10,779 nucleotides of DNA from the IMG/VR virus record IMGVR_UViG_2974696732_000001, one strand, 5' to 3'. The notes below the pieces were generated by a model. It made no database searches. It was not told the DNA's origin and saw only the letters and a program-made list of their open reading frames with translations. The stretch comes from a virus. Taxonomy: Duplodnaviria > Heunggongvirae > Uroviricota > Caudoviricetes. Below, piece by piece: positions 745 to 10,153 of the stretch; the first letter of the stretch is position 1, and the number at the start of each line of letters is the position of its first letter. Made by a program: the position numbers and the translations under genes.

Positions 745-752
745 ATTGAAAG

Positions 753-831
753 GTCCCTGGGGAGAGGCCGACCTTCCTCTAATTAAGCCCTCGCCAGAAT
801 GACTGATAGGGCCCCCAGGGACACACTTTAT
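753..831 (-). ncRNA. Candidate structured small RNA (three-way junction)
   Basis: Directly downstream of promoter 838-866. Outer stem GTCCCTGGGG/CCCCAGGGAC (753-762/813-822) encloses hairpins AGAGG/CCTCT (763-780) and GCCCT/AGGGC (787-812). No listed ORF. Ends uncertain. Confidence 0.5.
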
Positions 832-837
832 ACTTCT

Positions 838-866
838 ATGTTAGCAAGGCAGTGTTACCTTGTCAA
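838..866 (-). promoter_or_regulatory. Housekeeping-sigma promoter (ncRNA candidate)
   Basis: TTGACA (861-866) -17- TAACAT (838-843) with extended -10 TGC. Confidence 0.75.
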
Positions 867-878
867 CATCACTTTAGG

Positions 879-1088
879 TCACCATTCCAGCTCGTCTTCC
901 ACGCAGTAGTGGGACACGAACGGAACGACCCATCGGGTATTGAGAAGATGACCCCTCTCCGTCCACAGAGTCAGAGTTGCAGTCTTGGAATCGAACTCGA
1001 TTCCCTTTCCGCCTCCCTGAATGTTATCGAAGATGAGTTCCCTTCGGACTCCCTCTTCCAGAACGATTACGGTTACCCTGTGAGTCAT
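879..1088 (-). CDS. Hypothetical protein, 69 aa
   Basis: RBS AAGGGGAAG overlapping the upstream stop; second gene under promoter 1298-1326. Confidence 0.8.
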   Translation of the reverse strand: MTHRVTVIVLEEGVRRELIFDNIQGGGKGIEFDSKTATLTLWTERGHLLNTRWVVPFVSHYCVEDELEW

Positions 1089-1097
1089 TGCTTCCCC

Positions 1098-1274
1098 TTA
1101 CACCGGCTCGTTCGGAATGATTACCTCGGTGTTGTCAGCGTTTCGGTAAACCGAGCAGTGACCACAAAGAGGTGTCTCAACATCGTTCAGGTTGAAGGTG
1201 CCGATGGCCCTGCGAGCGAAGCAACCTTCGCAGTCTTCGTTCTCTTCCGGACCGAAGGCCATGACCATCGCCAT
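1098..1274 (-). CDS. Small CxxC..CxxC putative zinc-binding protein, 58 aa
   Basis: Hand translation MAMVMAFGPEENEDCEGCFARRAIGTFNLNDVETPLCGHCSVYRNADNTEVIIPNEPV*; RBS GAAAGGGG; promoter just upstream. Not in ORF track. Confidence 0.85.
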   Translation of the reverse strand: MAMVMAFGPEENEDCEGCFARRAIGTFNLNDVETPLCGHCSVYRNADNTEVIIPNEPV

Positions 1275-1297
1275 GTCTTTCCCCTTTCGTTGATACG

Positions 1298-1326
1298 AGT
1301 CTAGCAGACTACAAGGACACTGTCTA
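1298..1326 (-). promoter_or_regulatory. Promoter
   Basis: TAGACA-17-TAGACT, extended -10 TGC. Confidence 0.85.
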
Positions 1327-1340
1327 CCCTGCCGGGCGAT

Positions 1341-1386
1341 TGTCCGGGGCCGCCAAAATCCCCCTAAACCCTTCTGGGCTAGGGGG
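1341..1386. repeat. Box plus hairpin module
   Basis: Box TGTCCG-GGG-CCGCCA (1341-1355); hairpin CCCCTA..TAGGGG (1361-1385). Confidence 0.75.
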
Positions 1387-1404
1387 ACTGGCGTGCCTAC
1401 TGCA

Positions 1405-2418
1405 TTACGCAGCGAGGCTCAGGACCGCCTTACGGATGCGGTTCTTTTCGGCGTTGACCACCGGGTCGAAACCGCTGGCAGCGATGAACAGGTTGTCCAC
1501 GTTGCCACCACGGGGCATCCGGTACCAGTCGATACGCTCGGTCAGAGCGTTCAGGGCACCGGCCATGGTTCCGGCCAGAGATTGAGTGGTCTTCGGACCG
1601 GGGGCCGTGTCGGTGAAGATGCCCATGAGCAGGTCACGCTTCGACTCCCACTTGACCATGCTGCCCTTGACATCCTTCTCGGGCTTGGGGTAGAGAGCCT
1701 GAACGATGCTGTCGAACTGGTCGCGCGTGCACTTGGCAGCGGCCAGCGTGGTCAGCTCACGCTCCAGCTCATCCCCGTACGCGAAGGTGATGTTCAGGGC
1801 CTCACGCGCGGCAGCCATGCGACCCTCGATGGTCTGCGTGTGGCGCATCTTGAACTGCTGCTTCACACCGTTACGGAGTGCGAAGTTCAGCGTGTTCTGA
1901 CACACGACACGGACCGGAGTGACGGACGCCTGAACGGCCACGGAACCATCGTGAGAGGTGTTGACCAGCAGATAGAGCTTGGTCACGTCGTCGTCACCGA
2001 TGACGATGTCACGAGAGATGGACAGAGACCCGAAGACCACACGCCCATCCTTGATGGAACCGGCAGTCTCCCAGGTTCCACCACCCGCGAGGATGCCGTC
2101 ACCGAAGCCGAACAGGTCTTCGTTCTGGACGACCTTGTACCGCTCGCCCACCGTGGCCAGAACGTCGTTCCGACCGGTGAAGGGGTTGGTACGGACCACC
2201 ATGTGCGGCTCGGTCACGAAGTCATAGGAGTCCGAGACCAGACCCATGATTTCCTTGACCGACTCCAGACGGACGTCCCAGCCCTTGAGGTGAGCCAGAG
2301 ACAGCATCTCGTCGGTGGTCAGCTCTCCCTCGAACACGGTTCCGAGGTTGTGCCACGCGGGCTCGTTGCGAGAAGCGAACGCGACCTGACCCTTGGAACC
2401 AATCTCAAGACCGTGCAT
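1405..2418 (-). CDS. DUF932 / TIGR03299 phage-plasmid-like protein, 337 aa
   Basis: Start moved to ATG 2418 (RBS AGGAGG). Family motifs recognised: PAWHNLGTV, LATVGERYKVVQN, WETAGSIKDGRVVF, LLVNTSHDGS, TPVRVVCQNTL, MRHT. Confidence 0.85.
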   Translation of the reverse strand: MHGLEIGSKGQVAFASRNEPAWHNLGTVFEGELTTDEMLSLAHLKGWDVRLESVKEIMGLVSDSYDFVTEPHMVVRTNPFTGRNDVLATVGERYKVVQNEDLFGFGDGILAGGGTWETAGSIKDGRVVFGSLSISRDIVIGDDDVTKLYLLVNTSHDGSVAVQASVTPVRVVCQNTLNFALRNGVKQQFKMRHTQTIEGRMAAAREALNITFAYGDELERELTTLAAAKCTRDQFDSIVQALYPKPEKDVKGSMVKWESKRDLLMGIFTDTAPGPKTTQSLAGTMAGALNALTERIDWYRMPRGGNVDNLFIAASGFDPVVNAEKNRIRKAVLSLAA

Positions 2419-2476
2419 GTTGTGCCTCCTAGGCAGATTGGTGTAAGGGCTGGTTTCCCTGCCCTTCGATGTCTCT

Positions 2477-2506
2477 AGTCTAGCAGTAAGCAAGGGTGGA
2501 TGTCTA
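2477..2506 (-). promoter_or_regulatory. Promoter
   Basis: TAGACA-18-TAGACT, extended -10 TGC. Confidence 0.8.
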
Positions 2507-2525
2507 CCCACACTGCCGGGCTCGA

Positions 2526-2592
2526 TGTCCATAATGTCCGATTTGCCGGTTGGCCGGGCCGGACACACCGAAGCCCCCTCCGGAGAGGGGGC
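2526..2592. repeat. Half-site array plus box plus hairpin module
   Basis: Half-sites at 2526, 2535, 2544; box TGGCCG-GGC-CGGACA (2551-2565); hairpin GCCCCCTC-CGGA-GAGGGGGC (2573-2592). Confidence 0.85.
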
Positions 2593-2613
2593 AGAGTGCG
2601 AGTCTTAGGAGAC

Positions 2614-3060
2614 TCAGTAGGCCGCGTCCAGCAGGGCACGCTCCCAGTCGGCCAGGTACATGCCGTTCAGCTTGGCCACGTAGGCGTCCACGATGTCCTT
2701 GGAGTCCTTGAGACCCAGACCCGTCTTCTCGCGGAGCTGCTTGATGCACTGAATCTTCTTGTGGGAACCGACCTCACGAACGATGTCCTTGACCAGCTCC
2801 TCACCCTGCGCCTTGACGCGCTTCTCGATGTCCCGGAGACGGGTCAGCTCCCAGCTCGTGGGCTGCTCGGCGTCGGCCTTGCCGGAGGCGTAGCCGTTCT
2901 TGTGGCCCTCGTTGTAGCCCTTGTCCTCGGCCACCCGCTGGACCTCGATGTGGTGGTCCATCATGCGACGGGCCAGACGCATCGCCTGGTCGAAGCTCAT
3001 GTGCGGCTGCTCGTCGTGCAGCATGACCAGGTAGACGGCGAGGTTGACGTTGGCGCTCAT
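2614..3060 (-). CDS. Protein with ribosomal bL12 (L7/L12) C-terminal-like segment, 148 aa
   Basis: Residues 101-125 KKIQCIKQLREKTGLGLKDSKDIVD match the bL12 CTD helix pair; RBS GGAG; high-GC3 codons. Confidence 0.8.
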   Translation of the reverse strand: MSANVNLAVYLVMLHDEQPHMSFDQAMRLARRMMDHHIEVQRVAEDKGYNEGHKNGYASGKADAEQPTSWELTRLRDIEKRVKAQGEELVKDIVREVGSHKKIQCIKQLREKTGLGLKDSKDIVDAYVAKLNGMYLADWERALLDAAY

Positions 3061-3106
3061 GTTAGTCTCCGTTTCTCAGGGGGTCCGTCCCCCTTTCGAT
3101 GTTCTA

Positions 3107-3136
3107 AGTCTACACGATGACAGGGACAAGGGTCAA
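3107..3136 (-). promoter_or_regulatory. Promoter
   Basis: TTGACC-18-TAGACT. Confidence 0.85.
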
Positions 3137-3157
3137 CACCGCCTGTGTGCTGATTTT

Positions 3158-3196
3158 TGTCCGGGCCCGACACGGGCCCCAGAAGTCAAGGGCCCG
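3158..3196. repeat. Box plus hairpin module
   Basis: Box TGTCCG-GGC-CCGACA (3158-3172); hairpin CGGGCCC-N10-GGGCCCG (3173-3196). Confidence 0.85.
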
Positions 3197-3202
3197 GTAG
3201 GG

Positions 3203-3538
3203 TCAAGGGTTCGTGTGTCCCCTTTTCAGTAGTATCTGTTCGATGACGAATTTGGAATCCATCACACGATTGAATTCGTCATCTGAGCGACTTTCCGTTC
3301 TTCCTGCCCACGCATTGAGCAGAGAGATGATGAATTGAAACATCACCGCTTGCACAGGCTCAGGGTAGGTAGAAAGGAGGTAGGCGAATGCATGGGGGTC
3401 GAAAGACCGTTTGTCCATTTCATCGATGAGCTTATTCGCCAGACGCTCATACGATGTGGGACGTGGTGTTACGAGTCGCGCACCCTCATACATGTCAGGT
3501 GCGATGATGCTTGTTCGTTTGAAGGGACTACGCGCCAC
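3203..3538 (-). CDS. Hypothetical protein, about 111 aa
   Basis: Probable GTG start at 3538 after GGGGGAGAG, overlapping the stop of 3528..3695; ATG 3493 is an alternative. The listed 3664 start overlaps another gene. Confidence 0.7.
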   Translation of the reverse strand: MARSPFKRTSIIAPDMYEGARLVTPRPTSYERLANKLIDEMDKRSFDPHAFAYLLSTYPEPVQAVMFQFIISLLNAWAGRTESRSDDEFNRVMDSKFVIEQILLKRGHTNP

Positions 3539-3695
3539 CCTCTCCCCCAAAATCCTGCGTTGTACCGTAGCCGTCTGAGACACTGACAGACAGGCCCAGC
3601 ACCTTTGCCATGAACTCAGCCGTAGCTGTGGCAAAGGGCCAGGCACTGTCGTGAGCGTCATCATCAGGCGTGTCGATTTCGATGATGACTGACAT
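3528..3695 (-). CDS. Hypothetical acidic protein, 55 aa
   Basis: Hand translation MSVIIEIDTPDDDAHDSAWPFATATAEFMAKVLGLSVSVSDGYGTTQDFGGEGGA*; RBS TAGGATAGGA next to the upstream stop; fills the operon gap. Not in ORF track. Confidence 0.75.
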   Translation of the reverse strand: MSVIIEIDTPDDDAHDSAWPFATATAEFMAKVLGLSVSVSDGYGTTQDFGGEGGA

Positions 3696-3704
3696 GTTCC
3701 TATC

Positions 3705-4223
3705 CTATCGCGCGTGAACCTCTACGTCCATCCCGAGCACCACCGGGGAGCCACAGCCGCAGTGCGACAGGCTGTAACCGCACTTGCACACCTCGCGCTC
3801 CGAGAGACGGATACGCTTGTTGCCGTACCAAGCGGTGTACTCCGTACGGGGCGAACGGGTCGGGTTGGCGTGCGGACGGACATCCTTGCCCGTCACCTTG
3901 ACGTGGACGCCGGGCGCAGCGGGCTTGACCTCCGGGTTGTCCGCCTTGTAAGCGGCCAGCACCTCAGCGGAGAGACGACCACGGGCCGAAACGGTCATGC
4001 CCTTGGAAGTGGCCCACGCACGGACCGCCTTCGCATCGAACTGTCCGGCCTTGGGAGCGGCCTTGACGACCTTGCGCGGAGTGGCGTCGGTGTCGGTGAA
4101 GACCTTGCCCGACTTCTCAGCCTCCGCGATGGCCTCGTATGCGGCAGCGCTCATCCGGCCACGGGACTCCTTGGCCAGGCCCAGAGAGACAGCGTACGCG
4201 CGACGGGTCATGTTGACGTTCAT
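3705..4223 (-). CDS. lsr2: Lsr2-like DNA-binding protein, 172 aa
   Basis: Residues 62-94 FDAKAVRAWATSKGMTVSARGRLSAEVLAAYKA match the Lsr2 C-terminal RGR (AT-hook-like) domain. A second RGR module lies at residues ~5-35 and a Cys cluster at 146-157. RBS GAGGGAAGG. Confidence 0.85.
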   Translation of the reverse strand: MNVNMTRRAYAVSLGLAKESRGRMSAAAYEAIAEAEKSGKVFTDTDATPRKVVKAAPKAGQFDAKAVRAWATSKGMTVSARGRLSAEVLAAYKADNPEVKPAAPGVHVKVTGKDVRPHANPTRSPRTEYTAWYGNKRIRLSEREVCKCGYSLSHCGCGSPVVLGMDVEVHAR

Positions 4224-4250
4224 GGGGTTTCCTTCCCTCGGTGTGCACTC

Positions 4251-4279
4251 AGTCTATCGGATTGAAGGCGGAGAGGCAA
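4251..4279 (-). promoter_or_regulatory. Inner promoter of lsr2-like operon
   Basis: TTGCCT-17-TAGACT. Confidence 0.65.
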
Positions 4280-4320
4280 GCCCCGGTGCAGAGGTTGGTT
4301 TCCCTCCCCTTCATGTCTCT

Positions 4321-4350
4321 AGTATAGAGGACGTAACAGGGTCATGTCTA
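4321..4350 (-). promoter_or_regulatory. Outer promoter of lsr2-like operon
   Basis: TAGACA-18-TATACT. Confidence 0.8.
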
Positions 4351-4360
4351 CAGCCTAGAA

Positions 4361-4416
4361 TGTCCGTTTTGTCCGATATGCCCGTTGTCCGGGCCCGACA
4401 TGCCCCCGAAGGGGCA
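4361..4416. repeat. Half-site array plus box plus hairpin module
   Basis: Half-sites at 4361, 4370, 4379; box TGTCCG-GGC-CCGACA (4386-4400); hairpin TGCCCC-CGAA-GGGGCA (4401-4416). Confidence 0.9.
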
Positions 4417-4421
4417 AGGGG

Positions 4422-5156
4422 CTAAGCCTTCCTGCGCTTAGGAACCTTAGAGGCGAATCGGATATCCGCCTTACCAAAGATGCAAAGGCCACACGTCACA
4501 CATGCGCCTCCATCCTTAGTGATAAGGGGAATGCGCTTGGCATTCTCAGGGCAGATAGCGCCAGGCTTACCAGTTTCGGTAAGCATGAATTCCTTGCCCT
4601 TTTCGTGAGTCTCGTCAAGGTAGGCAAGACGCACAGACGGATATTCCTTTTGCGTTTCCAGCGCCTTTTCCTTGTTCTCACTGTCTACACTGAGATACAC
4701 AGAGAGATTGGGCAGACCGTAGATGAATCCCACGTACTCGAAAGAGCGCGTGTAAATCCAGAATTGCACATCCGGAAAGGATTCACAGGTCATTTCGATG
4801 GCCTCTGCATAGGTGGCAGAGAAAATGTCACCATCTGCGTGCCAGCGGAATACCTTGGGAACGTTGTGCTTTTCGCATTCCTCTCGGAACTCACTCACCA
4901 TTTCGGCAAGCAAGTAAACCATTCGAATGAGGCTTGCGTCTTTCAGCAATTCCCAATTGTGCAGGGCAAGGTCACGGAATGCCGGGTATTGCTTTTCCAG
5001 CTTACCGGCATAGCAGACCGTCTCACACACGCCGGTCGCGCCAGGGCAGGAATACGCCTTGCCACTGGGCAGGGAGAATGCGTTTTTGATGAGAGACTGA
5101 GTGCCAGCACCGTTTGCACGATTGGCAGTCTTACGGTCGTGCGAGCGCTTGAGCAT
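4422..5156 (-). CDS. GP88-like Cys-rich (putative Fe-S, radical-SAM-like) phage protein, 244 aa
   Basis: Start moved to ATG 5156 (RBS GAAAGGA). Motifs FSLPSGKAYSCPGATGVCETVCYA, FRWHADGDIFS, WIYTRS, NLSVYLSVD, CPEN..ACVTCGLC. Confidence 0.75.
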   Translation of the reverse strand: MLKRSHDRKTANRANGAGTQSLIKNAFSLPSGKAYSCPGATGVCETVCYAGKLEKQYPAFRDLALHNWELLKDASLIRMVYLLAEMVSEFREECEKHNVPKVFRWHADGDIFSATYAEAIEMTCESFPDVQFWIYTRSFEYVGFIYGLPNLSVYLSVDSENKEKALETQKEYPSVRLAYLDETHEKGKEFMLTETGKPGAICPENAKRIPLITKDGGACVTCGLCIFGKADIRFASKVPKRRKA

Positions 5157-5182
5157 GACAGTCCTTTCGTTGACGTAAGTCG

Positions 5183-5211
5183 AGTCTATCAGAGACAGGC
5201 TACGTAAACAA
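5183..5211 (-). promoter_or_regulatory. Promoter
   Basis: TTGTTT-17-TAGACT, extended -10 TGA. Confidence 0.7.
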
Positions 5212-5221
5212 GCCCTCAAAA

Positions 5222-5278
5222 TGTCCGTTTTGCCCGATGTCCGGGGCGGCCAAAGGCCCCCTCCAAACGGAGGGGGCC
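5222..5278. repeat. Half-site array plus box plus hairpin module
   Basis: Half-sites at 5222, 5231; box TGTCCG-GGG-CGGCCA (5238-5252); 10-bp stem GGCCCCCTCC-AAAC-GGAGGGGGCC (5255-5278), TTT after it on the minus strand. Confidence 0.85.
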
Positions 5279-5298
5279 AAGTGGGTTGAACTGGTGAC

Positions 5299-5472
5299 TC
5301 ACTCGGAGTCGGAAGGAGCGAACTCGCCCTGCTCGAACGCGATGTCGAGGAAGCGCTGCGCCTGCTCGCTGTCCAGGTGGGCGATGGCCTCGTTCACGAG
5401 GGTCTGCCGGGTGCTGGCCTTGAGCGGGGTGTTGGCGAAGGAACGGGCGATGGTGTCGAGGACGAGCTGCAT
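5299..5472 (-). CDS. Hypothetical protein, 57 aa
   Basis: Hand translation MQLVLDTIARSFANTPLKASTRQTLVNEAIAHLDSEQAQRFLDIAFEQGEFAPSDSE*; RBS AGAAGGAG; 54 of 57 codons end in G/C. Not in ORF track. Confidence 0.9.
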   Translation of the reverse strand: MQLVLDTIARSFANTPLKASTRQTLVNEAIAHLDSEQAQRFLDIAFEQGEFAPSDSE

Positions 5473-5518
5473 GGTGATTCTCCTTCTCTAGGGGGTGTTT
5501 CCCCCTTTCGATACCCTA

Positions 5519-5548
5519 AGTCTACACGACGCCTAGGGCTGTGTGCAA
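5519..5548 (-). promoter_or_regulatory. Promoter
   Basis: TTGCAC-18-TAGACT. Confidence 0.8.
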
Positions 5549-5569
5549 GCCTGAATCTGAGGTGATTTT

Positions 5570-5603
5570 TGTCCGGCCCGGACACAGACCCCCGAAGGGG
5601 CCC
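5570..5603. repeat. Box plus hairpin module
   Basis: Perfect box TGTCCG-GCC-CGGACA (5570-5584); hairpin CCCC-CGAA-GGGG (5589-5600), extended by G-U pairs only on the minus strand. Confidence 0.9.
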
Positions 5604-5607
5604 GGTG

Positions 5608-5667
5608 TCAGAAGAGAATGAGCAGAATGAACAGGACTGCGATGAGCCACACATACCCATCACGCAT
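5608..5667 (-). CDS. 19-aa hydrophobic micropeptide (single TM-like)
   Basis: MRDGYVWLIAVLFILLILF*; RBS GGAGGT inside the upstream ORF; start overlaps upstream stop; stop just before the hairpin module. Confidence 0.6.
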   Translation of the reverse strand: MRDGYVWLIAVLFILLILF

Positions 5668-5737
5668 TCTCGCACACCTCCCGGTACCAAGCGTAGTGCG
5701 TGTAGGGGTAGAAGTGAAGCCATTCCACGAAGTACAT
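5660..5737 (-). CDS. 25-aa aromatic-rich micropeptide
   Basis: MYFVEWLHFYPYTHYAWYREVCENA*; RBS AGGAGT overlapping the TAG of the upstream gene. Confidence 0.6.
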   Translation of the reverse strand: MYFVEWLHFYPYTHYAWYREVCENA

Positions 5738-5744
5738 GACACTC

Positions 5745-6044
5745 CTAGAAGAGTTCGGGTCCGGACTCGCTGTCTTCCGTCCAGTCCTCAGTATACTCGA
5801 TGAACTCGACGTTCAGCAACCACGCGATAAGAACTCGGTGGTGTCCGTTGAAAACGGTGTTCGACTCCACCATGTAGATGATGGGGTCAAGGATGCCCTT
5901 GGAGCAAGATTCAACAAACTCAGGGTTTCCCTCAAAGAGGTCGTTGAACTTCTCTTCGAACATCTGCCAGGTGGTGTGACCCTTGGCCTCAGCATCATTG
6001 AAGATAGCCGACTCAATCAGCTTCGCAACAGATACCTTGGCCAT
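5745..6044 (-). CDS. ParB/Srx N-terminal-like domain protein, 99 aa
   Basis: FVESCSKGILDPIIYMVESNTVFNGHHRVLIAWLLN fits the ParBc pattern G..xPI...[DN]GHHR..A..L; no HTH; RBS AAGGAGG. Confidence 0.65.
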   Translation of the reverse strand: MAKVSVAKLIESAIFNDAEAKGHTTWQMFEEKFNDLFEGNPEFVESCSKGILDPIIYMVESNTVFNGHHRVLIAWLLNVEFIEYTEDWTEDSESGPELF

Positions 6045-6070
6045 GTCGCCCTCCTTGGCTTGATAGGTCT

Positions 6071-6099
6071 AGTCTACATGAGTACAAGGGCTGTGTCTA
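6071..6099 (-). promoter_or_regulatory. Promoter
   Basis: TAGACA-17-TAGACT. Confidence 0.85.
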
Positions 6100-6113
6100 G
6101 TGCCGGGCCAAAT

Positions 6114-6152
6114 TGTCCGGGGCGGCCAAATGGGGCCCCGGAGGGCCCCATT
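6114..6152. repeat. Box plus hairpin module
   Basis: Box TGTCCG-GGG-CGGCCA (6114-6128); 10-bp stem AATGGGGCCC-CGGA-GGGCCCCATT (6129-6152). Confidence 0.9.
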
Positions 6153-6155
6153 GGG

Positions 6156-6428
6156 TCAGTCTTCGCTGGTGTCCTTCTGGCTCACCAGCTTCGCACGGCC
6201 GAGCAGAGAGGCGTCGGCCTCCTTCCACTTCTTGACCGGCTTGCCGACTCGCACACGGGGGAACCGAGCGATGATGGCACGCGCACGGGTCTCGTCCGCC
6301 TCCAGGATGTCGAACCGCTGGAAGGGGGCACGGGTGGCGATGGGGCCGAACTCGATGTCCACCCCCTGGACAATCATGGCCACGCGGAGGGAGAGGGCGT
6401 CACGGACGGGAACGATACCGGCAATCAT
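6156..6428 (-). CDS. Hypothetical protein, 90 aa
   Basis: RBS AGGAGT; high-GC3 codons; stop adjacent to the hairpin module. Confidence 0.85.
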   Translation of the reverse strand: MIAGIVPVRDALSLRVAMIVQGVDIEFGPIATRAPFQRFDILEADETRARAIIARFPRVRVGKPVKKWKEADASLLGRAKLVSQKDTSED

Positions 6429-6491
6429 GTGAACTCCTGAGAGTCGAAGTAAGCTGGGGTATTCAGTTATCAGAGACTTTGGCAGGAAGGG

Positions 6492-6513
6492 AAAAACCTC
6501 ACGTTGCGAGGCC
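6492..6513 (-). terminator. Terminator or attenuator-like hairpin in the leader of 6156..6428
   Basis: Minus strand GGCCTCGC-AAC-GTGAGGTT followed by a U run (AAAAA at 6492-6496); G-U pairs work only on the minus strand. Confidence 0.5.
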
Positions 6514-6542
6514 CTGTGGCCTGTCCCCTTGTGCTTAGCTAG

Positions 6543-6572
6543 AGTCTATCAGCCTGACCTAGTTGCAGTCAA
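6543..6572 (-). promoter_or_regulatory. Promoter overlapping the 3' end of 6559..6741
   Basis: TTGACT-18-TAGACT, extended -10 TGA; no box upstream. Confidence 0.75.
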
Positions 6573-6741
6573 CCAGGTATTCGGGCTCGTCGTCCTCGGA
6601 GACCGTCCAGATGTCGGCCAGCCAACCCTTACGGATGACACCGGCCGTCTCGAACTTGTGCGGCTCAGCGGACTCACGAACCGCATCTGCGTACTCCTCT
6701 TCGGAGATGATGCTGTAACCCTCGGGAATCTCGAACGTCAT
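6559..6741 (-). CDS. Hypothetical acidic protein, 60 aa
   Basis: RBS GAGAGGAG; own promoter upstream. Confidence 0.85.
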   Translation of the reverse strand: MTFEIPEGYSIISEEEYADAVRESAEPHKFETAGVIRKGWLADIWTVSEDDEPEYLVDCN

Positions 6742-6786
6742 GACCGCTCCTCTCGTTGGGAGGCTTCCCTCCCTCTCGATGTTCTA

Positions 6787-6815
6787 AGTCTACATGACCG
6801 ATGGGACAGGCGCAA
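6787..6815 (-). promoter_or_regulatory. Promoter
   Basis: TTGCGC-17-TAGACT. Confidence 0.75.
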
Positions 6816-6843
6816 CAACCAATATTCGTTAGTCTGCCTAAGT

Positions 6844-6872
6844 TGTCCGGGGCCGACAGGCCCCGAAGGGCC
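6844..6872. repeat. Box plus hairpin module
   Basis: Box TGTCCG-GGG-CCGACA (6844-6858); hairpin GGCCC-CGAA-GGGCC (6859-6872). Confidence 0.9.
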
Positions 6873-6877
6873 CTTTG

Positions 6878-7033
6878 TCAGTCTCCCATGTCGTCCAGAT
6901 GAGCATCCGGAGCGGGCTCGAACTCAAGGAAGGTGTCTTCGAAAATCACCATCCATGCGTAGCCCTCACGATTGTCCGGATTGCACTTGCCACGGTGCAT
7001 GTCACCCATGGCAGCGCCACATTCGATGCACAT
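6878..7033 (-). CDS. Small CxxC-containing acidic protein, 51 aa
   Basis: Hand translation MCIECGAAMGDMHRGKCNPDNREGYAWMVIFEDTFLEFEPAPDAHLDDMGD*; TGATG coupling to the upstream gene. Not in ORF track. Confidence 0.8.
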   Translation of the reverse strand: MCIECGAAMGDMHRGKCNPDNREGYAWMVIFEDTFLEFEPAPDAHLDDMGD

Positions 7034-7257
7034 CAGCGCCCCAGGTTGTAGAGAGAGGCAACCAGCATCTCAACTCGGTTGACTCGAATCGAAAGGCGGG
7101 AGCCGTTCGCGTCGGTGAGGGTGAACAGCTTCATGTCGTTGTGAACCGCTTCGGTCCATGCCAGATTGATGGCATCGGGCGTGGTGTCCTTGATGTAGGC
7201 CACCAGCGTCTTGTCACGGTCGTGGAAGTACAGCTCAACACGAACATCGTTCAGCAT
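7033..7257 (-). CDS. Hypothetical protein, 74 aa
   Basis: RBS GAGAGGA; own promoter. Confidence 0.85.
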   Translation of the reverse strand: MLNDVRVELYFHDRDKTLVAYIKDTTPDAINLAWTEAVHNDMKLFTLTDANGSRLSIRVNRVEMLVASLYNLGR

Positions 7258-7302
7258 GGTGCATCCTCTCTTCCGGGAGCTTTTCTCCCTTTCGATGCTC
7301 TA

Positions 7303-7331
7303 ACTCTACAGCATGTGGGAGGCAGATACAA
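7303..7331 (-). promoter_or_regulatory. Promoter
   Basis: TTGTAT-17-TAGAGT. Confidence 0.7.
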
Positions 7332-7345
7332 CCCCAATTTGAAAG

Positions 7346-7378
7346 TGTCCGGGCCCGACACGGGCCCCGAAGGGCCCG
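7346..7378. repeat. Box plus hairpin module
   Basis: Box TGTCCG-GGC-CCGACA (7346-7360); hairpin CGGGCCC-CGAA-GGGCCCG (7361-7378). Confidence 0.9.
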
Positions 7379-7389
7379 GCGGAAAGGTG

Positions 7390-7674
7390 TTACTTCTTGG
7401 CCTTGGTGCGACGGTTGCTGTGGTTGCCGTTCATGAGGGCGGTGAAGTCCAGCATGATGTTCTGCTTGAAGTTGGTCGCTCCGTGGAACTTGCCGTCCTG
7501 GTCACGGATGACGATGCGGACCTCGGTGGAGTCGCTGCCCGGAGTGGTCTTCCAGGTCTCCAGCCGGATGCTGTAGACGGACTTGGAACCCTTGACCTTG
7601 AAGCCCTCGGAGATGGTGACGGAGGAGACGATGTTGTGGTTGACGTCGGTCTTCTTGGCGAGGGTAACGGCCAT
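7390..7674 (-). CDS. Hypothetical basic protein, 94 aa
   Basis: RBS GAGGAG; all 11 Lys codons are AAG; basic C-terminal tail RRTKAKK. Confidence 0.9.
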   Translation of the reverse strand: MAVTLAKKTDVNHNIVSSVTISEGFKVKGSKSVYSIRLETWKTTPGSDSTEVRIVIRDQDGKFHGATNFKQNIMLDFTALMNGNHSNRRTKAKK

Positions 7675-7728
7675 TTGAAGCTCCTCAGAGTCTCGCTTGG
7701 GGGTTCCTTCCCCCTTGCTGATAGCTAA

Positions 7729-7758
7729 AGTCTACACGACCCAAGGGACATCGCGCAA
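7729..7758 (-). promoter_or_regulatory. Promoter
   Basis: TTGCGC-18-TAGACT. Confidence 0.75.
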
Positions 7759-7770
7759 CCCCTGAATTTA

Positions 7771-7814
7771 TGTCCTTTTTGTCCGTCCGGGCCGGACAGG
7801 GCCCCGGAGGGCCC
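7771..7814. repeat. Half-site array plus box plus hairpin module
   Basis: Half-sites at 7771, 7780; box CGTCCG-GGC-CGGACA (7784-7798); hairpin GGGCCC-CGGA-GGGCCC (7799-7814). Confidence 0.9.
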
Positions 7815-7819
7815 GTCCA

Positions 7820-8161
7820 TCACTCGGAGGGGAAAGACTCAGCGAAGAACTTGGCACGCTCCCTCTTGGCACGGCTGTGAGCACCGTCACGGCTTGCGTA
7901 CTCCTGGAACTCCGACACGGTGTCGATGGTGAGATGTCCGTTTTCGTCCAGCTTGGCCACACGAACGGTGTAGAGTCGGGGAGACATGTCGTCGAAGCGC
8001 TCGGAGGAGACGAAGAACATCGTCTTCCCCTGCAAGTCGCTGTAGCACATCTCGGAGATGCGGGAGTTGAAGAAGCGCAGGGTGGCCCGGTCGAAGAAGT
8101 GGTTGTTCTGGTCCTTGGCGATGGCCTTGACGTCTTCCAGAGAGAACATCTGAGTGCGCAT
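7820..8161 (-). CDS. Conserved-looking phage hypothetical protein, 113 aa
   Basis: Start moved to ATG 8161 (RBS GAGAGGA). Motifs HFFDRATLRFFNSRI, FFVSSE, RLYTVR resemble a widespread phage family; family ID not certain. Confidence 0.85.
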   Translation of the reverse strand: MRTQMFSLEDVKAIAKDQNNHFFDRATLRFFNSRISEMCYSDLQGKTMFFVSSERFDDMSPRLYTVRVAKLDENGHLTIDTVSEFQEYASRDGAHSRAKRERAKFFAESFPSE

Positions 8162-8192
8162 TGTGTGGGTTCCTCTCCCTCGGTGTAAGTAG

Positions 8193-8222
8193 AGTCTAAC
8201 ACAGCTCAAGGACAGGCCACAA
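8193..8222 (-). promoter_or_regulatory. Promoter
   Basis: TTGTGG-18-TAGACT, extended -10 TGT. Confidence 0.7.
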
Positions 8223-8247
8223 CACCTACCGGGCCTTTTTCTGAAAG

Positions 8248-8278
8248 TGTCCGGCCCCGACAGGGGCCCGAAGGCCCC
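8248..8278. repeat. Box plus hairpin module
   Basis: Box TGTCCG-GCC-CCGACA (8248-8262); hairpin GGGGCC-CGAA-GGCCCC (8263-8278). Confidence 0.9.
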
Positions 8279-8283
8279 TTCTG

Positions 8284-8607
8284 TCAGGTGAGCTGAGCCA
8301 GGAGAGAACTGATTTCCTGACGGAGTTCGGACTGAGGCCGGTAGCCTCGCTCCGCCTTCAACTGACGCTCGAAGTAGGCGCGAAGTTCGGTCTTGTTGTA
8401 CGGACCGTACGCCTGGTCAGCGTAGTCGATGTCCTCGAACGGAATGGGGCAGGAGCAACCGGAGTCGCTTGCCACGTAGTACCGCCCTCGGGCCTCCTTC
8501 CACACTCGCGTCTCGTTGAACTGGTAGGATTCGTGGTCCCAGTCGAACCCACCGACGTAGGTCAGGCTGTCCAGCGAAATACGCTCGGGCTTCGAAAGGT
8601 CGGTCAT
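8284..8607 (-). CDS. Actinophage hypothetical protein with DSGCSCP motif, 107 aa
   Basis: RBS GAGGAGG overlapping the upstream TGA; YYVASDSGCSCPIPFED motif recalled from actinophage proteins of unknown function. Confidence 0.85.
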   Translation of the reverse strand: MTDLSKPERISLDSLTYVGGFDWDHESYQFNETRVWKEARGRYYVASDSGCSCPIPFEDIDYADQAYGPYNKTELRAYFERQLKAERGYRPQSELRQEISSLLAQLT

Positions 8608-8616
8608 GGTTCCTCC

Positions 8617-8760
8617 TCAGATGTCTTTACGCTGAACTTTATCACACTTGGAGCACTGGCGCACCTGAATCAGCGCCTTCCAGGTACCGAGCTTGGGGAA
8701 GAGAGGGGAGTCGAACGTTCCCACCATCTGCTTCCAGTTGGACCACTTGTGGAAACACAT
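8617..8760 (-). CDS. Small putative zinc-binding protein, 47 aa
   Basis: Start moved to ATG 8760 (RBS GGAGG): MCFHKW...QVRQCSKCDKVQRKDI. Confidence 0.8.
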   Translation of the reverse strand: MCFHKWSNWKQMVGTFDSPLFPKLGTWKALIQVRQCSKCDKVQRKDI

Positions 8761-8785
8761 CCCGTCCTCCGTTTTCGTTAGCTCT

Positions 8786-8814
8786 AGTCTACAGGGCCAA
8801 TTTTTGAGTCGCAA
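8786..8814 (-). promoter_or_regulatory. Promoter
   Basis: TTGCGA-17-TAGACT. Confidence 0.75.
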
Positions 8815-8820
8815 CCCCAA

Positions 8821-8874
8821 AGTCCAGATTTTTAGTCGCAGATTTTTAGTCCGGGGCGGACAGGCCCGAAGGCC
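8821..8874. repeat. Tandem repeat plus box plus hairpin module
   Basis: AGTCCAGATTTTT / AGTCGCAGATTTTT (8821-8847); box AGTCCG-GGG-CGGACA (8848-8862); hairpin GGCC-CGAA-GGCC (8863-8874). Confidence 0.85.
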
Positions 8875-8881
8875 CTTCCGC

Positions 8882-9196
8882 TCACTCCCAAGGCTTGTAG
8901 TCACTCCAGTCCGCACCCTCGCGCGGCTCGATGAGGATTTCGATGGTGTCGCCCAGACGGTGATTCACGCTGTACAGAGAACGGGAAGAACCCTGGTAGC
9001 GACGCTGCGCCTTGGCCCACTTGACCAGCTTCTCAGCCTGCTTGGCCGAACGACAGGGCCATGCCTCGATGCACAGACCGTAGTTGAACCACCATCCGCC
9101 CTCTTCGCTGCCTCCCCATGCACGCTGCAATTCGTAGACGTTCACCCAGTGCTTGTTCCGACGACGCTGGCCCATACGGAGTGACTTCTTCGCCAT
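8882..9196 (-). CDS. Phage hypothetical protein with GGSEEGGWW motif, 104 aa
   Basis: RBS AAGGAGG; own promoter. Confidence 0.85.
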   Translation of the reverse strand: MAKKSLRMGQRRRNKHWVNVYELQRAWGGSEEGGWWFNYGLCIEAWPCRSAKQAEKLVKWAKAQRRYQGSSRSLYSVNHRLGDTIEILIEPREGADWSDYKPWE

Positions 9197-9219
9197 GTTT
9201 CCTCCTTGGTGATGACCTA

Positions 9220-9248
9220 AGTCTAACAGACGCCTAGGACAGACTCAA
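9220..9248 (-). promoter_or_regulatory. Promoter
   Basis: TTGAGT-17-TAGACT, extended -10 TGT. Confidence 0.8.
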
Positions 9249-9281
9249 CATGCTTGTAAGGATATTTTTTCATTTAGGGAG

Positions 9282-9296
9282 TGTCCCGCCCGGACA
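9282..9296. repeat. 15-bp palindromic box
   Basis: TGTCCC-GCC-CGGACA, one mismatch. Confidence 0.85.
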
Positions 9297-9310
9297 AAAA
9301 ATTCGCCCAC

Positions 9311-9371
9311 AAATTCACCCCTCTTTTCTAAGGAAATCTAGGCGAAAATCCTTGAAAAGAGGGGTGAATTT
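9311..9371. repeat. Long inverted repeat (terminator or cruciform)
   Basis: AAATTCACCCCTCTTTTC (9311-9328) and its exact reverse complement (9354-9371), extended inward by AAGGA/TCCTT after a 1-nt bulge; 14-nt loop. Confidence 0.85.
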
Positions 9372-9394
9372 TTTCTATGAAGTTTTTTCGAAGG

Positions 9395-9607
9395 TCAGAT
9401 GGCGACTTTTTCGTCTTTTCCTGCCTCACAAAGGCAGTATTTCGAATGTGTCGCCTCGATTGCGGTAAAACCGCTTTCCTCGTAGCGTGCGAGGAGATTC
9501 GCCAGAAGGGACGAGTTGAATACCGAAGTTTTCGATTTCAGCCCGTCCCTTTCCAGCAAAAGGGACATACTGTGGAATTGTACCGGTTTCGGCCTTTTCC
9601 TGAACAT
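9395..9607 (-). CDS. Hypothetical protein, 70 aa
   Basis: RBS AAAAGGGG; AT-richer codons (all 7 Lys are AAA). Confidence 0.65.
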   Translation of the reverse strand: MFRKRPKPVQFHSMSLLLERDGLKSKTSVFNSSLLANLLARYEESGFTAIEATHSKYCLCEAGKDEKVAI

Positions 9608-9625
9608 GAATGCCCCTTTTAGGTG

Positions 9626-9769
9626 TTACGCCAGTTCGGCCATGTGCGGGTAGGCGTCCCAGTCGAAGCCGTCCACACGGTCCGCATCCCGAACGTCGGA
9701 AACGGGAACCGTGATGGTGGTGAAGACACCCGCGTCAGCGGCCTGCTCAAGAAGGTCACGAAGGTCCAT
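9626..9769 (-). CDS. Hypothetical acidic protein, 47 aa
   Basis: Hand translation MDLRDLLEQAADAGVFTTITVPVSDVRDADRVDGFDWDAYPHMAELA*; RBS AGAGGA; own promoter. Not in ORF track. Confidence 0.85.
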   Translation of the reverse strand: MDLRDLLEQAADAGVFTTITVPVSDVRDADRVDGFDWDAYPHMAELA

Positions 9770-9801
9770 GGTGTGTACTTCCTCTCGCTTGGTGTAGTAC
9801 C

Positions 9802-9830
9802 AGTCTACACAAGGGGTAGGGCAGATGCAA
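9802..9830 (-). promoter_or_regulatory. First leftward promoter
   Basis: TTGCAT-17-TAGACT. Confidence 0.8.
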
Positions 9831-9884
9831 GCCCAAAGTCTCCGGGAATTTTTCGTGCCTATCGTACACGCGCGGGGGAAATGT

Positions 9885-10031
9885 GGGGTATGTACGTAAC
9901 GCCCCTTAAAAGGGCCTATATCCTAGATGTCCCATATGTACCCTATGCCCTATATGGGTGGGTATGGGATGGTATGCCCTATATGTACCCCTATGTATGG
10001 GTATGTACCCAATGTCCGTTTTGCCCCATAT
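9885..10031. repeat. Degenerate GGGTATG / CCCTATATG repeat tract
   Basis: TATGCCCTATATG at 9944 and 9973; GGGTATGTAC at 9886 and 9999; further GGGTATG and CCCATAT copies. Confidence 0.75.
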
Positions 10032-10120: not shown

Positions 10121-10153
10121 GTAAGCACAGCAACGAACAAGGGAGACAGGGAC

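Follow-up and report, generated by a model that had tools for sequence, protein, structure and literature searches.

Judging from its matches to phage genomes, the 10,779-nucleotide stretch analysed here in full (positions 1..10779; henceforth the window) is the complete direct terminal repeat (DTR) of a Streptomyces phage in cluster BE1 (Samistivirus), and we propose, with a probability of roughly 0.7, that this repeat is an array of early gene cassettes whose boundaries serve as recombination joints. The window aligns over 100% of its length, at 99.0% identity, with positions 121099-131879 of Bartholomune (OK310502.1), the left end of which it also matches, and every matching record has it at two positions. 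BE1 terminal repeats of about 10.8 kb have been described and compared with those of T5 and SPO1 (PMC5764925). The phage is of a large, lytic, siphovirus type with a Gram-positive, high-GC host. Since each genome end carries the DTR, there are two copies of it, and it is the first DNA into the cell no matter which end goes in ahead; it is a candidate immediate-early region of the host-takeover type. Public runs holding the window sequence are metagenomes, in which it is stored as contigs.

The minus strand of the window carries 15 predicted transcription units and 16 predicted promoters (Table 1). A preliminary description had recognized an array of about 13 cassettes at 1298-9371. The array is real and far above chance, but its nature as a terminal repeat had been overlooked, and the range was drawn too narrowly, with the first promoter (9830-9802) and the last palindrome (730-744) falling outside it. 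The order of parts given there recurs in 13 gaps, in detail as stop codon, GC hairpin, palindrome, -35, -10, leader, GGAG-type RBS and ATG, and each unit indeed holds one to three small ORFs; likewise, the gap set apart as boxless (6429-6558) has a promoter and neither hairpin nor palindrome. That description had missed the conserved AUCGAAAG leader stem-loops, the lack of a U-tract after the hairpins, the confinement of the palindrome to the DTR, its close spacing to the hairpin and its genus specificity. The first unit is devoid of a hairpin because there is no gene upstream of it.

Table 1. Features of the terminal-repeat array, with breakpoints and variants seen in related phages.
Feature	Span	Strand	Hairpin	Palindrome	-35	-10	Start	Other features
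First unit control region	9770..10048	-		10048-10034	9830-9825 TTGCAT	9807-9802 TAGACT		repeat-rich spacer
First unit ORFs	9626-9769, 9395-9607	-						predicted to be driven by promoter 9830-9802
M1	9197..9394	-	18-bp stem 9371-9354/9328-9311	9296-9282	9248-9243	9225-9220	9196	stem is an inverted repeat, 100% complementary
M2	8761..8881	-	8875-8862	8862-8848	8814-8809	8791-8786	8760	
M3	8162..8283	-	8279-8262	8262-8248	8222-8217	8198-8193	8161	orthologous hairpins differ by paired changes
M4	7675..7819	-	7814-7799	7798-7784	7758-7753	7734-7729	7674	leader stem-loop; stem swaps GGGCCC/GGGCCC vs GGGGCC/GGCCCC among relatives
M5	7258..7389	-	7378-7361	7360-7346	7331-7326	7308-7303 (TAGAGT)	7257	AUCGAAAG leader stem-loop; cargo 3' of RBS replaced in Braelyn, Persimmon, WhereRU
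M6	6742..6877	-	6873-6858	6858-6844	6815-6810	6792-6787	6741	AUCGAGAG leader stem-loop; Braelyn-type crossover inside palindrome; additional cassette in Jay2Jay between window 6817 and 6840
M7 junction	6429..6572	-	none	none	6572-6567	6548-6543	6428	-35 within end of upstream ORF 6559-6741; 114-nt leader with short stem + UUUUU, kept in Coruscant; whole-leader fold no better than shuffles
M8	6045..6155	-	6152-6129	6128-6114 (TGGC variant)	6099-6094 TAGACA	6076-6071	6044	Peebs breakpoint at 6110
M9	5473..5607	-	5604-5585	5584-5570	5548-5543	5524-5519	5472	AUCGAAAG leader stem-loop; Mildred21 and Peebs breakpoints at 5569/5570
M10	5157..5298	-	5278-5255	5252-5238	5211-5206	5188-5183	5156	extra CGGACA half-site; Mildred21 and Jay2Jay breakpoints at 5243/5249, inside palindrome
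M11 (Lsr2 operon)	4224..4421	-	4416-4401	4400-4386			4223	two extra CGGACA half-sites
M11 tandem promoter P1		-			4350-4345	4326-4321 TATACT		
M11 tandem promoter P2		-			4279-4274	4256-4251		
M12	3061..3202	-	3196-3173	3172-3158	3136-3131 TTGACC	3112-3107	3060	AUCGAAAG leader stem-loop, GGGGG/CCCCC to GGGAG/CTCCC in Peebs; Mildred21 breakpoint at 3158
M13	2419..2613	-	2599-2565	2565-2551	2506-2501 TAGACA	2482-2477	2418	extra CGGACA/GGACAT sites; leader stem-loop; Mildred21 breakpoint at 2508
M14	1275..1404	-	1389-1357	1355-1341 (TGGC variant)	1326-1321 TAGACA	1303-1298	1274	Jay2Jay breakpoint at 1298
Array end	730..866	-	long, ORF-less, ~830-753	744-730 (last)				promoter-like TTGACA-17-TAACAT (866-838); palindrome position kept in Jay2Jay, Mildred21, Peebs, centre varies
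Cargo	879..9769	-						21 annotated small ORFs and two unannotated micro-ORFs; ORFs intact

The promoters conform to a consensus of TTGNNN or TAGACA, a spacer of 17-18 nt and TAGACT. A search of the window for T[TA]GNNN-N17/18-TAGACT gives 14 minus-strand matches and none on the plus strand (0.06 in shuffles), and the variants TAGAGT (7308-7303) and TATACT (4326-4321) raise the number from 14 to 16. The strict pattern is found 14 times per repeat versus 10 times in the 110-kb unique region; promoter activity and early timing are predicted for the array. About half of the leaders display the conserved AUCGAAAG with a stem-loop. The GC hairpins at the unit ends are stable (dG -9 to -25 kcal/mol) and keep their pairing via paired changes among relatives. 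No U-tract comes after any of them, and a consensus terminator scan of the coding strand found no terminator; hence, long transcripts could run through the array.

Among the cargo ORFs, Pfam recognizes an Lsr2 DNA-binding domain (3705-4223), GP88 (4422-5156), DUF932 (1405-2418), a bL12 C-terminal-like stretch (2614-3060), DUF7574 and DUF7447, and assigns the other cargo ORFs to no family. Their PHROG matches are all of unknown function except for Lsr2, and the small basic proteins encoded by the repeat gave no fold or family lead.

A further part of the module is the 15-bp palindrome, TGTCSG-N3-CSGACA. The window holds 15 copies of TGTCSGSSSCSGACA when up to one mismatch is allowed, where 200 shuffles predict 0.04: 13 copies lie within 1298-9371, one per gap, and two outside (730-744 and 10034-10048), with a further two-mismatch copy (10102-10116) in the spacer of a plus-strand HNH promoter. 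The palindrome is present as previously described, but is imperfect, with arm positions 1, 3 and 5 varying without compensation. Across 65 copies the arms are near-invariant and the flanks almost information-free. The palindrome begins 0-3 nt past the hairpin in 11 of the 14 modules, its distance to the -35 box (14-44 nt) not being fixed. In Bartholomune each repeat holds 10 strict copies, and the rest of the genome, its 110-kb unique part included, has none; Coruscant and Quaran19 have 16 and 17 copies per repeat of their own motifs, respectively, again with none elsewhere. In the sister genera the motif is RGCCGCCCCGGYY (Karimacvirus) or TGGCGCCCGGCGCCA (Coruscantvirus), confined to the repeats, and across the three genera it has been replaced as a set with the layout of hairpin, promoter and leader retained. 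Within BE1, the palindrome is kept at orthologous sites in four species of about 80% overall identity.

These patterns suggest that a protein binds the palindrome as a boundary site, and that the palindrome is more than a stretch of shared homology; we give roughly even odds to its being an operator for a protein. The putative binder is probably phage-encoded: BE1 and BE2 phages share a host strain, S. griseus ATCC 10137, and differ in their motifs, which argues against a host factor. Among the annotated DNA binders of the phage, none varies along with the palindrome: the Lsr2-like zinc domain, a 50-aa HTH protein and the FtsK-like protein's C-terminus are each conserved across genera. The central bases of the palindrome are C-rich on the transcribed strand (in 14 of 16 copies in Coruscant), a strand bias that is not expected in a symmetric operator.

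That bias would instead fit a palindrome working in RNA, be it as part of a tandem two-hairpin terminator lacking a U-tract, as a 3'-end stabiliser or as a processing site; a comparable intergenic cleavage is known for the early RNAs of T7 and SP82. Such a role would also account for the close apposition of palindrome and hairpin, for the potential of the motif, in all three genera, to pair over about 6 bp around a C-rich triloop, and for the missing canonical U-tracts, which would call for an extra signal. However, a full stem can form in just 19 of the 65 copies from four BE1 phages, given the uncompensated arm changes, and the mean dG is -3.8 kcal/mol as against -13.1 for the adjacent hairpins, which, unlike the palindrome, maintain pairing by double changes. 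Moreover, a plain structural element would not need a conserved arm sequence, and copies occur where no transcript end is expected, namely upstream of the first promoter (10034-10048) and at the 10102-10116 variant. We hence consider an RNA role unlikely.

Alignment of the relatives bears directly on the proposal that the modules act as recombination joints. As anticipated in the preliminary description, gene content and order are not invariant: the gene-order table reveals cassettes that were gained, lost, duplicated or relocated, including lineage-specific ones, against a gene order that is mostly conserved within BE1. Its expectation that breakpoints would fall in modules was likewise borne out, with 13 of 21 distinct breakpoints lying in modules that make up 24% of the sequence (P=2e-4). 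Six of the 21 have a palindrome no more than 5 nt away (P=0.01, conditional on module location), partly an alignment effect, because the motif is common to every module and alignments ending at it can partly mimic recombination there. In Jay2Jay one cargo family (fam24) is flanked by BE1-type boundaries, and in Coruscant by boundaries of the Coruscant type. Several gene-precise indels also occur inside operons, away from modules (8619-8764 and 875-1097).

Could the array simply be ordinary, its shared sequences stemming from a duplicated ancestral intergenic region, with palindrome and recombination having no special role? The modules do match one another at 70-84% across positions and fall into subfamilies (the 108-nt repeat D4, and D1 and D9), and selection alone would likewise leave surviving breakpoints between genes. 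Against this, conservation is punctate, the 15 palindrome positions being kept next to bases with almost no information; the motif changes as a set per genus within a constant layout and persists at orthologous sites despite overall divergence; and the breakpoints inside modules are enriched at palindromes. This makes an ordinary origin improbable in our assessment. Least probable of all is that the palindrome acts at the DNA level in a repeat-specific process other than transcription, such as oriented loading of an FtsK/TraB-like pump, control of packaging or injection, or strand-specific nicking: the motif is confined to the terminal repeats in three genera and orientation-biased, its BE1 positions 6-13 (GSSCCGGA) are identical at 7 of 8 positions to the pSVH1 TraB site GACCCGGA, which is exact in 7 of 65 copies, and the phage has genes for an FtsK-like protein and for a DUF2637 membrane protein, but such a process need not place one copy per transcription unit 0-3 nt after a hairpin, the FtsK-like protein shows 91-92% identity in its C-terminal part between BE1 and BE2 even as their motifs differ, the BE2 and Coruscant motifs bear a weak likeness to the TraB site, and Pfam did not confirm the FtsK domain.

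An operator-like reading of the palindrome has known parallels. In the stoperators of mycobacteriophage L5 and the conserved inverted repeats of the Streptomyces phage phiC31, a phage regulator binds the sites and blocks transcription that passes through the intervals or starts from them. As in BE1, one short site recurs in many copies between genes; however, L5 and phiC31 are temperate and their sites are bound by the immunity repressor, whereas the BE1 phage here is lytic, and the L5 sites are asymmetric and genome-wide, whereas the BE1 site, a palindrome, is limited to the terminal repeat and joined to a hairpin. At the E. coli yobI terminator palindrome, LexA both lessens read-through and represses the next promoter (preprint 10.64898/2026.08.19.745784). 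The yobI and ruvA sites resemble the BE modules in having a palindrome between a terminator stem-loop and the following promoter, but the LexA case is single and chromosomal and the stem-loop itself is bound, as opposed to a separate palindrome after the stem-loop in about 15 repeats.

In terms of architecture, the closest described counterparts are, as the preliminary description held, the promoter-early stem-loop (PeSL) cassettes of T4-type phages (Arbiol et al. 2010, PMC2839356; Comeau et al. 2014, PMC4122927). Both combine a stop codon, a GC-rich stem-loop, an early promoter of the host sigma-70 type and a Shine-Dalgarno sequence, are concentrated where small orphan genes abound, and have the insertion, deletion and replacement junctions between relatives within the elements. 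The BE modules differ in adding the 15-bp genus-specific palindrome after the stem-loop and often a 5' leader stem-loop, in having the stem-loop always upstream of the promoter (in PeSL it is often within or across it), and in residing in the terminal repeat of an unrelated siphovirus whose host is high-GC and Gram-positive. For PeSL, mini-circles as well as activity of the promoters and terminators have been demonstrated, whereas the BE modules are known from sequence. By location and content, the array is akin to Bacillus phage SPO1's host-takeover module, likewise in a long terminal repeat (13.2 kb against 10.8 kb here) with about two dozen small early genes, mostly of unknown function, in about a dozen short operons (PMC6873191, PMC10531801). 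Each operon has a strong host-type promoter and RBS, as predicted for BE. No gene homology between the SPO1 and BE cargo was detected with Pfam and PHROG. Host shut-off has been demonstrated for SPO1 genes, whereas the BE genes are known as sequences, and we know of no repeated boundary palindrome in SPO1.

Taken together, we propose that the host RNA polymerase with its principal sigma factor would start at the 16 closely spaced promoters to yield 15 short mRNAs, each for one to three small, mostly orphan proteins. All would bear a strong GGAG-type RBS, and about half would begin with AUCGAAAG and a GC stem-loop, probably a 5' stabiliser. Each unit would end in the stable GC hairpin without a U-tract and then the palindrome, where we infer that a sequence-specific dimeric protein, probably phage-encoded, binds and marks the unit boundary. 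Once bound, the protein may make the weak hairpin a more effective terminator and may repress the promoter that follows or insulate it, by which the early region would be controlled as one block. At the same time, the boundary repeats would constitute short homologies, recombination at which would have exchanged, duplicated, inserted and deleted cassettes in related phages.

The window aligns over its full 10,779-base length with the genome of the Streptomyces phage Bartholomune (OK310502.1) at 99.0% identity, and does so twice, at positions 1-10,781 and 121,099-131,879. All 83 matching records are Streptomyces phages, with two places of match per record among the matches listed. Given this paired match, the window is the complete direct terminal repeat of a phage of cluster BE1 (genus Samistivirus, family Stanwilliamsviridae); whole-genome counts were taken on Bartholomune, which at 99% identity stands in for the window's own genome. 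The repeats of the BE cluster, of about 10.7-11.5 kb and likened in size to those of T5 and SPO1, have been reported to hold 20-25 ORFs of unknown function, an lsr2-like gene included (PMC5764925). In the literature that we searched, including that report and the paper on phage Coruscant, we found no description of promoters, hairpins or palindromes of these repeats.

The genes between 879 and 9769 are all intact and all on the minus strand. When every gap between them is read in the direction of transcription, the repeated order claimed in the preliminary description is apparent, and 13 gaps hold it in full: stop codon, GC hairpin, palindrome, -35, -10, leader, GGAG-type ribosome-binding site and ATG, a unit that we call a module. 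A scan for the promoter pattern T[TA]GNNN-N17/18-TAGACT gave 14 hits on the minus strand and none on the plus strand (0.06 in shuffles); together with one TAGAGT and one TATACT variant, this gives 16 promoters for 15 transcription units, each of 1-3 ORFs. These elements are predicted to be early promoters of the host sigma-70 type, and in Bartholomune each repeat holds 14 of the strict TAGACT type, compared with 10 in the entire unique region. Modules do occupy the range 1298-9371 to which the array had been assigned, but the array reaches further on both sides, to its first promoter and its last palindrome (see the table). The one junction previously described as boxless indeed lacks both hairpin and palindrome, and the -35 of its promoter lies inside the end of the upstream ORF.

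The hairpins of the 13 modules range from -9 to -25 kcal/mol and often carry a UUCG or UCCG loop. In no module are they followed by a U-tract, in place of which the stems run into the palindrome, and a consensus scan of the minus (coding) strand of the window found no terminator-like site; the missing U-tract rules them out as canonical intrinsic terminators, which combine a GC stem-loop with such a tract. About half of the leaders start with a conserved AUCGAAAG, followed by a GC stem-loop with a purine-rich 5' arm (GGGAGG-like). This type of leader element is common to all three genera examined, and the pairing of its stem is kept through double changes, with GGGGG/CCCCC in one leader becoming GGGAG/CTCCC in the same leader of the BE1 phage Peebs. 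A stem-loop at this 5' position would be expected to stabilize the mRNA. A search of the window against Rfam with E up to 0.1 gave no match.

Several further features accompany the array. The leader at the boxless junction holds a short stem followed by UUUUU (CCTCGCAACGTGAGGTTTTT) and is kept in Coruscant; its overall fold is no better than that of shuffles, and it could be an attenuator. At the far end of the array, the window's best match to an E. coli-type promoter, TTGACA-17-TAACAT plus a TG upstream, has no ORF downstream of it and is followed by a long hairpin and the last palindrome; belonging to no Rfam family, this locus may be a small RNA gene that closes the array. Downstream of the ParB-like gene lie two overlapping unannotated micro-ORFs, one of about 25 aa (MYFVEWLHFYPYTHYAWYREVCENA) and the other a hydrophobic one of 19 aa (MRDGYVWLIAVLFILLILF); both are also conserved in the BE1 phage Mildred21, in the corresponding gap, which is unannotated there too. 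The repeat ends in gene-free, repeat-rich stretches on both sides, with CATTCGTAAA-type repeats about 212-224 nt apart, inverted repeats of TGTATATGGG, and runs of TATAGGGCATA and GGGTACATA; these may be linked to packaging, genome ends or injection.

Coordinates of features in and near the terminal repeat (window positions unless stated)
Feature	Position	Strand	Remark
First promoter	9830-9802	minus	
Palindrome of the first unit	10048-10034	minus	203 nt upstream of the first promoter
Last palindrome	744-730	minus	after a long hairpin without an ORF
Junction without hairpin or palindrome	6429-6558	minus	
Leader at that junction	6429-6545	minus	114 nt
Divergent HNH endonuclease promoter	10093-10120	plus	TTGCAT, 16 nt, TATGCT
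AAAWCGGACAT sites	160-175, 660-684, 2530-2545, 4359-4380, 5220-5241, 7769-7790, 10011-10032		repeat family D6; plus strand AATGTCCGTTTTG
Candidate small RNA gene	753-866	minus	promoter match at 866-838
Two micro-ORFs	5608-5742	minus	
Gene-free end stretches	1-870 and 9840-10030		
Lsr2-like protein	3705-4223	minus	
148-aa protein with bL12-like stretch	2614-3060	minus	
Swap in Mildred21	5244-5569		palindrome to palindrome
Palindrome holding a Braelyn-type junction	6858-6844		
Indels inside operons	8619-8764 and 875-1097		gene-precise
TGTCAC/GTGACA cluster (locus L002)	Bartholomune OK310502.1, ~13,000-13,600		outside the repeat

The palindrome of the module is 15 bp long and has the form TGTCSG-N3-CSGACA. 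At up to one mismatch, TGTCSGSSSCSGACA is present in 15 copies in the window against 0.04 expected, and across the full Bartholomune genome its strict core GTCSGSSSCSGAC occurs 10 times per repeat and not once in the 110-kb unique part, and the density of the half-site CGGACA in the repeats is 13 times that elsewhere (3.06 versus 0.24 per kb). The array as a whole is a real, well-defined feature and far from random. Hexamers of the type TGTCAC/GTGACA form a dense cluster (13 in 500 bp) in and around a gene for a DUF2637 membrane protein just outside the repeat; this cluster is separate from the CGGACA system, from which it differs in both hexamer and location. In 11 of 14 cases the palindrome starts 0-3 nt past the stem, but the gap to the -35 varies between 14 and 44 nt, over which we found no fixed or helical spacing. 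It is tied to the hairpin and not to the promoter.

In the 65 copies examined, which come from four BE1 species, positions 2, 4, 6, 10, 12 and 14 of the arms are almost invariant, the three central bases vary freely, and the flanking bases carry almost no information. Changes at arm positions 1, 3 and 5 are not mirrored in the opposite arm; a full 6-bp stem is possible in only 19 of the 65, and the mean dG is -3.8 kcal/mol as against -13.1 for the neighboring hairpins. Those hairpins differ in sequence between modules and between orthologues, with their pairing kept by paired changes. What is conserved is therefore the structure of the hairpin and the sequence of the palindrome.

The palindrome is further set apart by its confinement to one genus. 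The other Samistivirus species Jay2Jay, Warpy, Mildred21 and Peebs, about 80-85% identical, have 15-18 copies at corresponding sites. In Quaran19 and StarPlatinum of the genus Karimacvirus (cluster BE2) and in Coruscant (Coruscantvirus), a search for the BE1 palindrome returned one two-mismatch match in Quaran19 and none in the others, even though the layout of their repeats is the same. After the hairpin, BE2 has RGCCGCCCCGGYY, frequently together with AAAAGATCTTG, and Coruscant has the perfect palindrome TGGCGCCCGGCGCCA and then TAGATG-N7-CATCTA, with TAAGCT as the -10 box. These motifs are equally restricted, with 17 copies per repeat in Quaran19, 16 in Coruscant and none elsewhere in either genome. 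The genus motifs look as if they had diverged from a single ancestral site, since one BE1 variant, TGGCCGCCCCGGACA, stands between the forms of BE1 and BE2. The strain S. griseus ATCC 10137 was the isolation host of BE1 and BE2 phages alike; a site that differs by phage genus on a shared host is unlikely to be read by a host protein. Unlike the palindrome, a second motif, AAAWCGGACAT, is common to all three genera and clusters by the first promoter, the promoter of the Lsr2 operon and the left end of the repeat; it may be bound by some conserved factor, for which the Lsr2-like protein is a candidate.

The best-supported reading is that the palindrome is a putative DNA site for a sequence-specific, dimeric, phage-encoded protein co-evolving with its sites. 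Its location, with a weak hairpin on one side and the next promoter on the other, points to two functions, whereby the putative binder would strengthen termination and also control or insulate the promoter that follows. A comparable arrangement has been described for LexA, which at the palindrome of the yobI terminator lowers read-through and represses ruvA; in the same study, a promoter within about 35 bp improves termination (preprint 10.64898/2026.08.19.745784). In its full form, the proposal is of a dedicated insulator/operator system whose repeat-only boundary sites, flanking each of the transcription units, re-specified in each genus and read by the putative phage protein, would first insulate and then collectively silence (or activate) a host-takeover region, while supplying termination to hairpins unable to achieve it alone; we give this a probability of about 0.35. 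On the plus strand, the spacer of the divergent promoter of an HNH endonuclease gene holds a weakened, two-mismatch copy of the palindrome (TTGCAT-ggg-TGTCCGGGGCGGGTATGCT), a classical repressor position that suggests repression by the same putative factor.

Certain features do not fit neatly with a symmetric operator, namely the center of the site, which is C-rich on the transcribed strand (in 14 of 16 cases in Coruscant), and its abutment on the hairpin. This strand bias and this abutment keep in play an action of the palindrome at the RNA level, which we nevertheless regard as unlikely. Less probable still is that it serves a process specific to the terminal repeat other than transcription, for instance as loading sites for an FtsK/TraB-like pump: positions 6-13 of the BE1 motif agree with the TraB recognition sequence GACCCGGA at 7 of 8 bases, and at all 8 in 7 of 65 copies. 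The clt sites of Streptomyces plasmids bound by the FtsK-like TraB are clustered direct 8-bp repeats; the BE1 sites are palindromic and dispersed at one per gap, and the phage's FtsK-like protein does not vary with the motif.

With respect to the putative DNA-binding protein of the preferred reading, Pfam and PHROGs searches with all repeat-encoded proteins recovered no DNA-binding family other than Lsr2, the only informative families being Lsr2, GP88, DUF932, a bL12-like stretch, DUF7574 and DUF7447. PDB sequence searches with four basic small repeat proteins returned nothing usable, and Atlas look-ups for repeat-encoded proteins gave scores all below 0.8. Three annotated DNA binders are poor candidates for a genus-specific site, as their likely DNA-reading parts are kept across genera and do not track the motif: the Lsr2-like protein with its zinc domain, the FtsK-like protein with its C-terminus, and an HTH protein of 50 aa. 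The Lsr2-like protein itself apparently has two RGR-type Lsr2 DNA-binding repeats, with Pfam scoring only residues 63-94, and its C-terminal cysteine cluster CKCGYSLSHCxCG is almost invariant in the three genera.

When the repeat-encoded proteins of seven phages were clustered into families and their gene order was compared, we observed a largely shared backbone with clear changes at the level of cassettes. One family (fam24) forms an extra single-gene cassette in Jay2Jay, between units that adjoin in the window, and has a homologue (47% identity) at a different array position in Coruscant; its boundaries are of the BE1 type in Jay2Jay and of the Coruscant type in Coruscant, so that the cargo moves while the framework stays genus-specific. 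Another (fam21) is found both in the window and in Coruscant, where its place in the array is different; the copy number of the ParB-like gene is one or two, and several units are ordered differently in BE1 and BE2. The gene for a 148-aa protein, residues 94-127 of which match the C-terminal domain of bL12 (Pfam PF00542, E=9e-8), has a tandem duplicate in Peebs and occupies other positions in BE2 phages.

In pairwise alignments, the segment swapped in Mildred21 starts and stops exactly at palindromes; a replacement in Braelyn, Persimmon and WhereRU spans two genes together with their hairpin, with junctions at the ribosome-binding site/ATG and inside a palindrome; and the Jay2Jay insertion sits between a palindrome and the -35. 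Altogether, modules account for 24% of the sequence but contain 13 of the 21 distinct breakpoints (P=2e-4), and 6 of the 21 are no more than 5 nt from a palindrome (P=0.01 given module location), counts to be read with the caveats that alignments extend into any motif common to all modules and that selection alone favors junctions between genes. The earlier proposal that the modules serve the shuffling of cargo is therefore upheld in that cassettes have been gained, duplicated and relocated, with most breakpoints in modules, but it requires tempering, as gene order inside BE1 is mostly stable and two indels are gene-precise inside operons. The libraries that contain the sequence are contig sets of metagenomes or metatranscriptomes, with no RNA-seq of an infection among them. 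Long-range joints in four of these libraries all fall in modules, but with sides of only 20-40 nt at 88% likeness, on short contigs, we accord them no weight, and they do not bear on transcription.

The promoter-early stem-loop (PeSL) cassettes of T4-type phages (PMC2839356, PMC4122927), named at the outset as the closest architecture, prove an apt comparison, sharing the same parts, orphan-gene setting and location of junctions. Both combine a stop codon, a stem-loop, a sigma-70-type early promoter and a Shine-Dalgarno sequence, and both are concentrated in plastic regions of small orphan genes, with the junctions of indels and replacements in the elements. The BE modules differ in the addition of a genus-specific palindrome and a leader stem-loop, in a stem-loop fixed upstream of the promoter, and in host and phage lineage. 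They also fail to show the AT-rich tract found upstream of the -35 in PeSL elements, with only some having a short A- or T-run after the palindrome, in the interval of 14-44 nt. In the PeSL system the stem-loop, joined to the promoter, serves to terminate or attenuate transcription, and recombination between neighboring elements yields mini-circles. Judging from these shared and divergent sequence features, the BE array would be a convergent analogue of the PeSL system and not a member of it. SPO1's host-takeover module (PMC6873191, PMC10531801) offers a second parallel: it too is placed in a long terminal redundancy, the BE repeat standing at both genome ends, and contains many small early genes grouped into short operons whose promoters and ribosome-binding sites are strong, as in the 15 units of 1-3 ORFs with GGAG-type sites and predicted early timing seen here. 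The SPO1 products (gp37-60) shut off host processes, and no family ties the BE cargo to the SPO1 genes; with no gene family in common, the relation is one of analogy and not of membership, and the BE array parallels the SPO1 module in genome position and likely in role. An integron-type array, with an integrase and promoterless cassettes that each bear an attC and share one common promoter, is ruled out because every cassette has its own promoter and no integron-type integrase or recombinase is annotated among the 272 features of Bartholomune. Repeated intergenic operators occur in temperate actinophages, as with the stoperators of L5 and the inverted repeats of phiC31; to our knowledge, no lytic phage is known to use such operators as boundary sites that occur only in its repeat.

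In conclusion, the terminal repeat consists of PeSL-like cassettes in a setting of the host-takeover type, together with a genus-specific, repeat-confined palindrome that points to a putative regulator and lends itself to direct testing. Cluster BE, a large and much-sequenced phage group, obtains a putative transcription map if its repeat is viewed as a modular early region, and the genes that act first on the host can be predicted. The comparisons among relatives also extend the idea of composite terminator-promoter elements as recombination joints from T4-type myoviruses of Gram-negative hosts to an unrelated family of actinomycete siphoviruses, and suggest that the same solution evolved convergently in both lineages. 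For the engineering of Streptomyces, the modules could be a source of boundary elements, 5' leaders and promoters that are both compact and strong. Moreover, if the proposed role of the palindrome is true, the early region of a lytic phage would possess a dedicated insulator/operator system, and its genus-specific versions would provide a natural toolkit of orthogonal boundary elements for Streptomyces.
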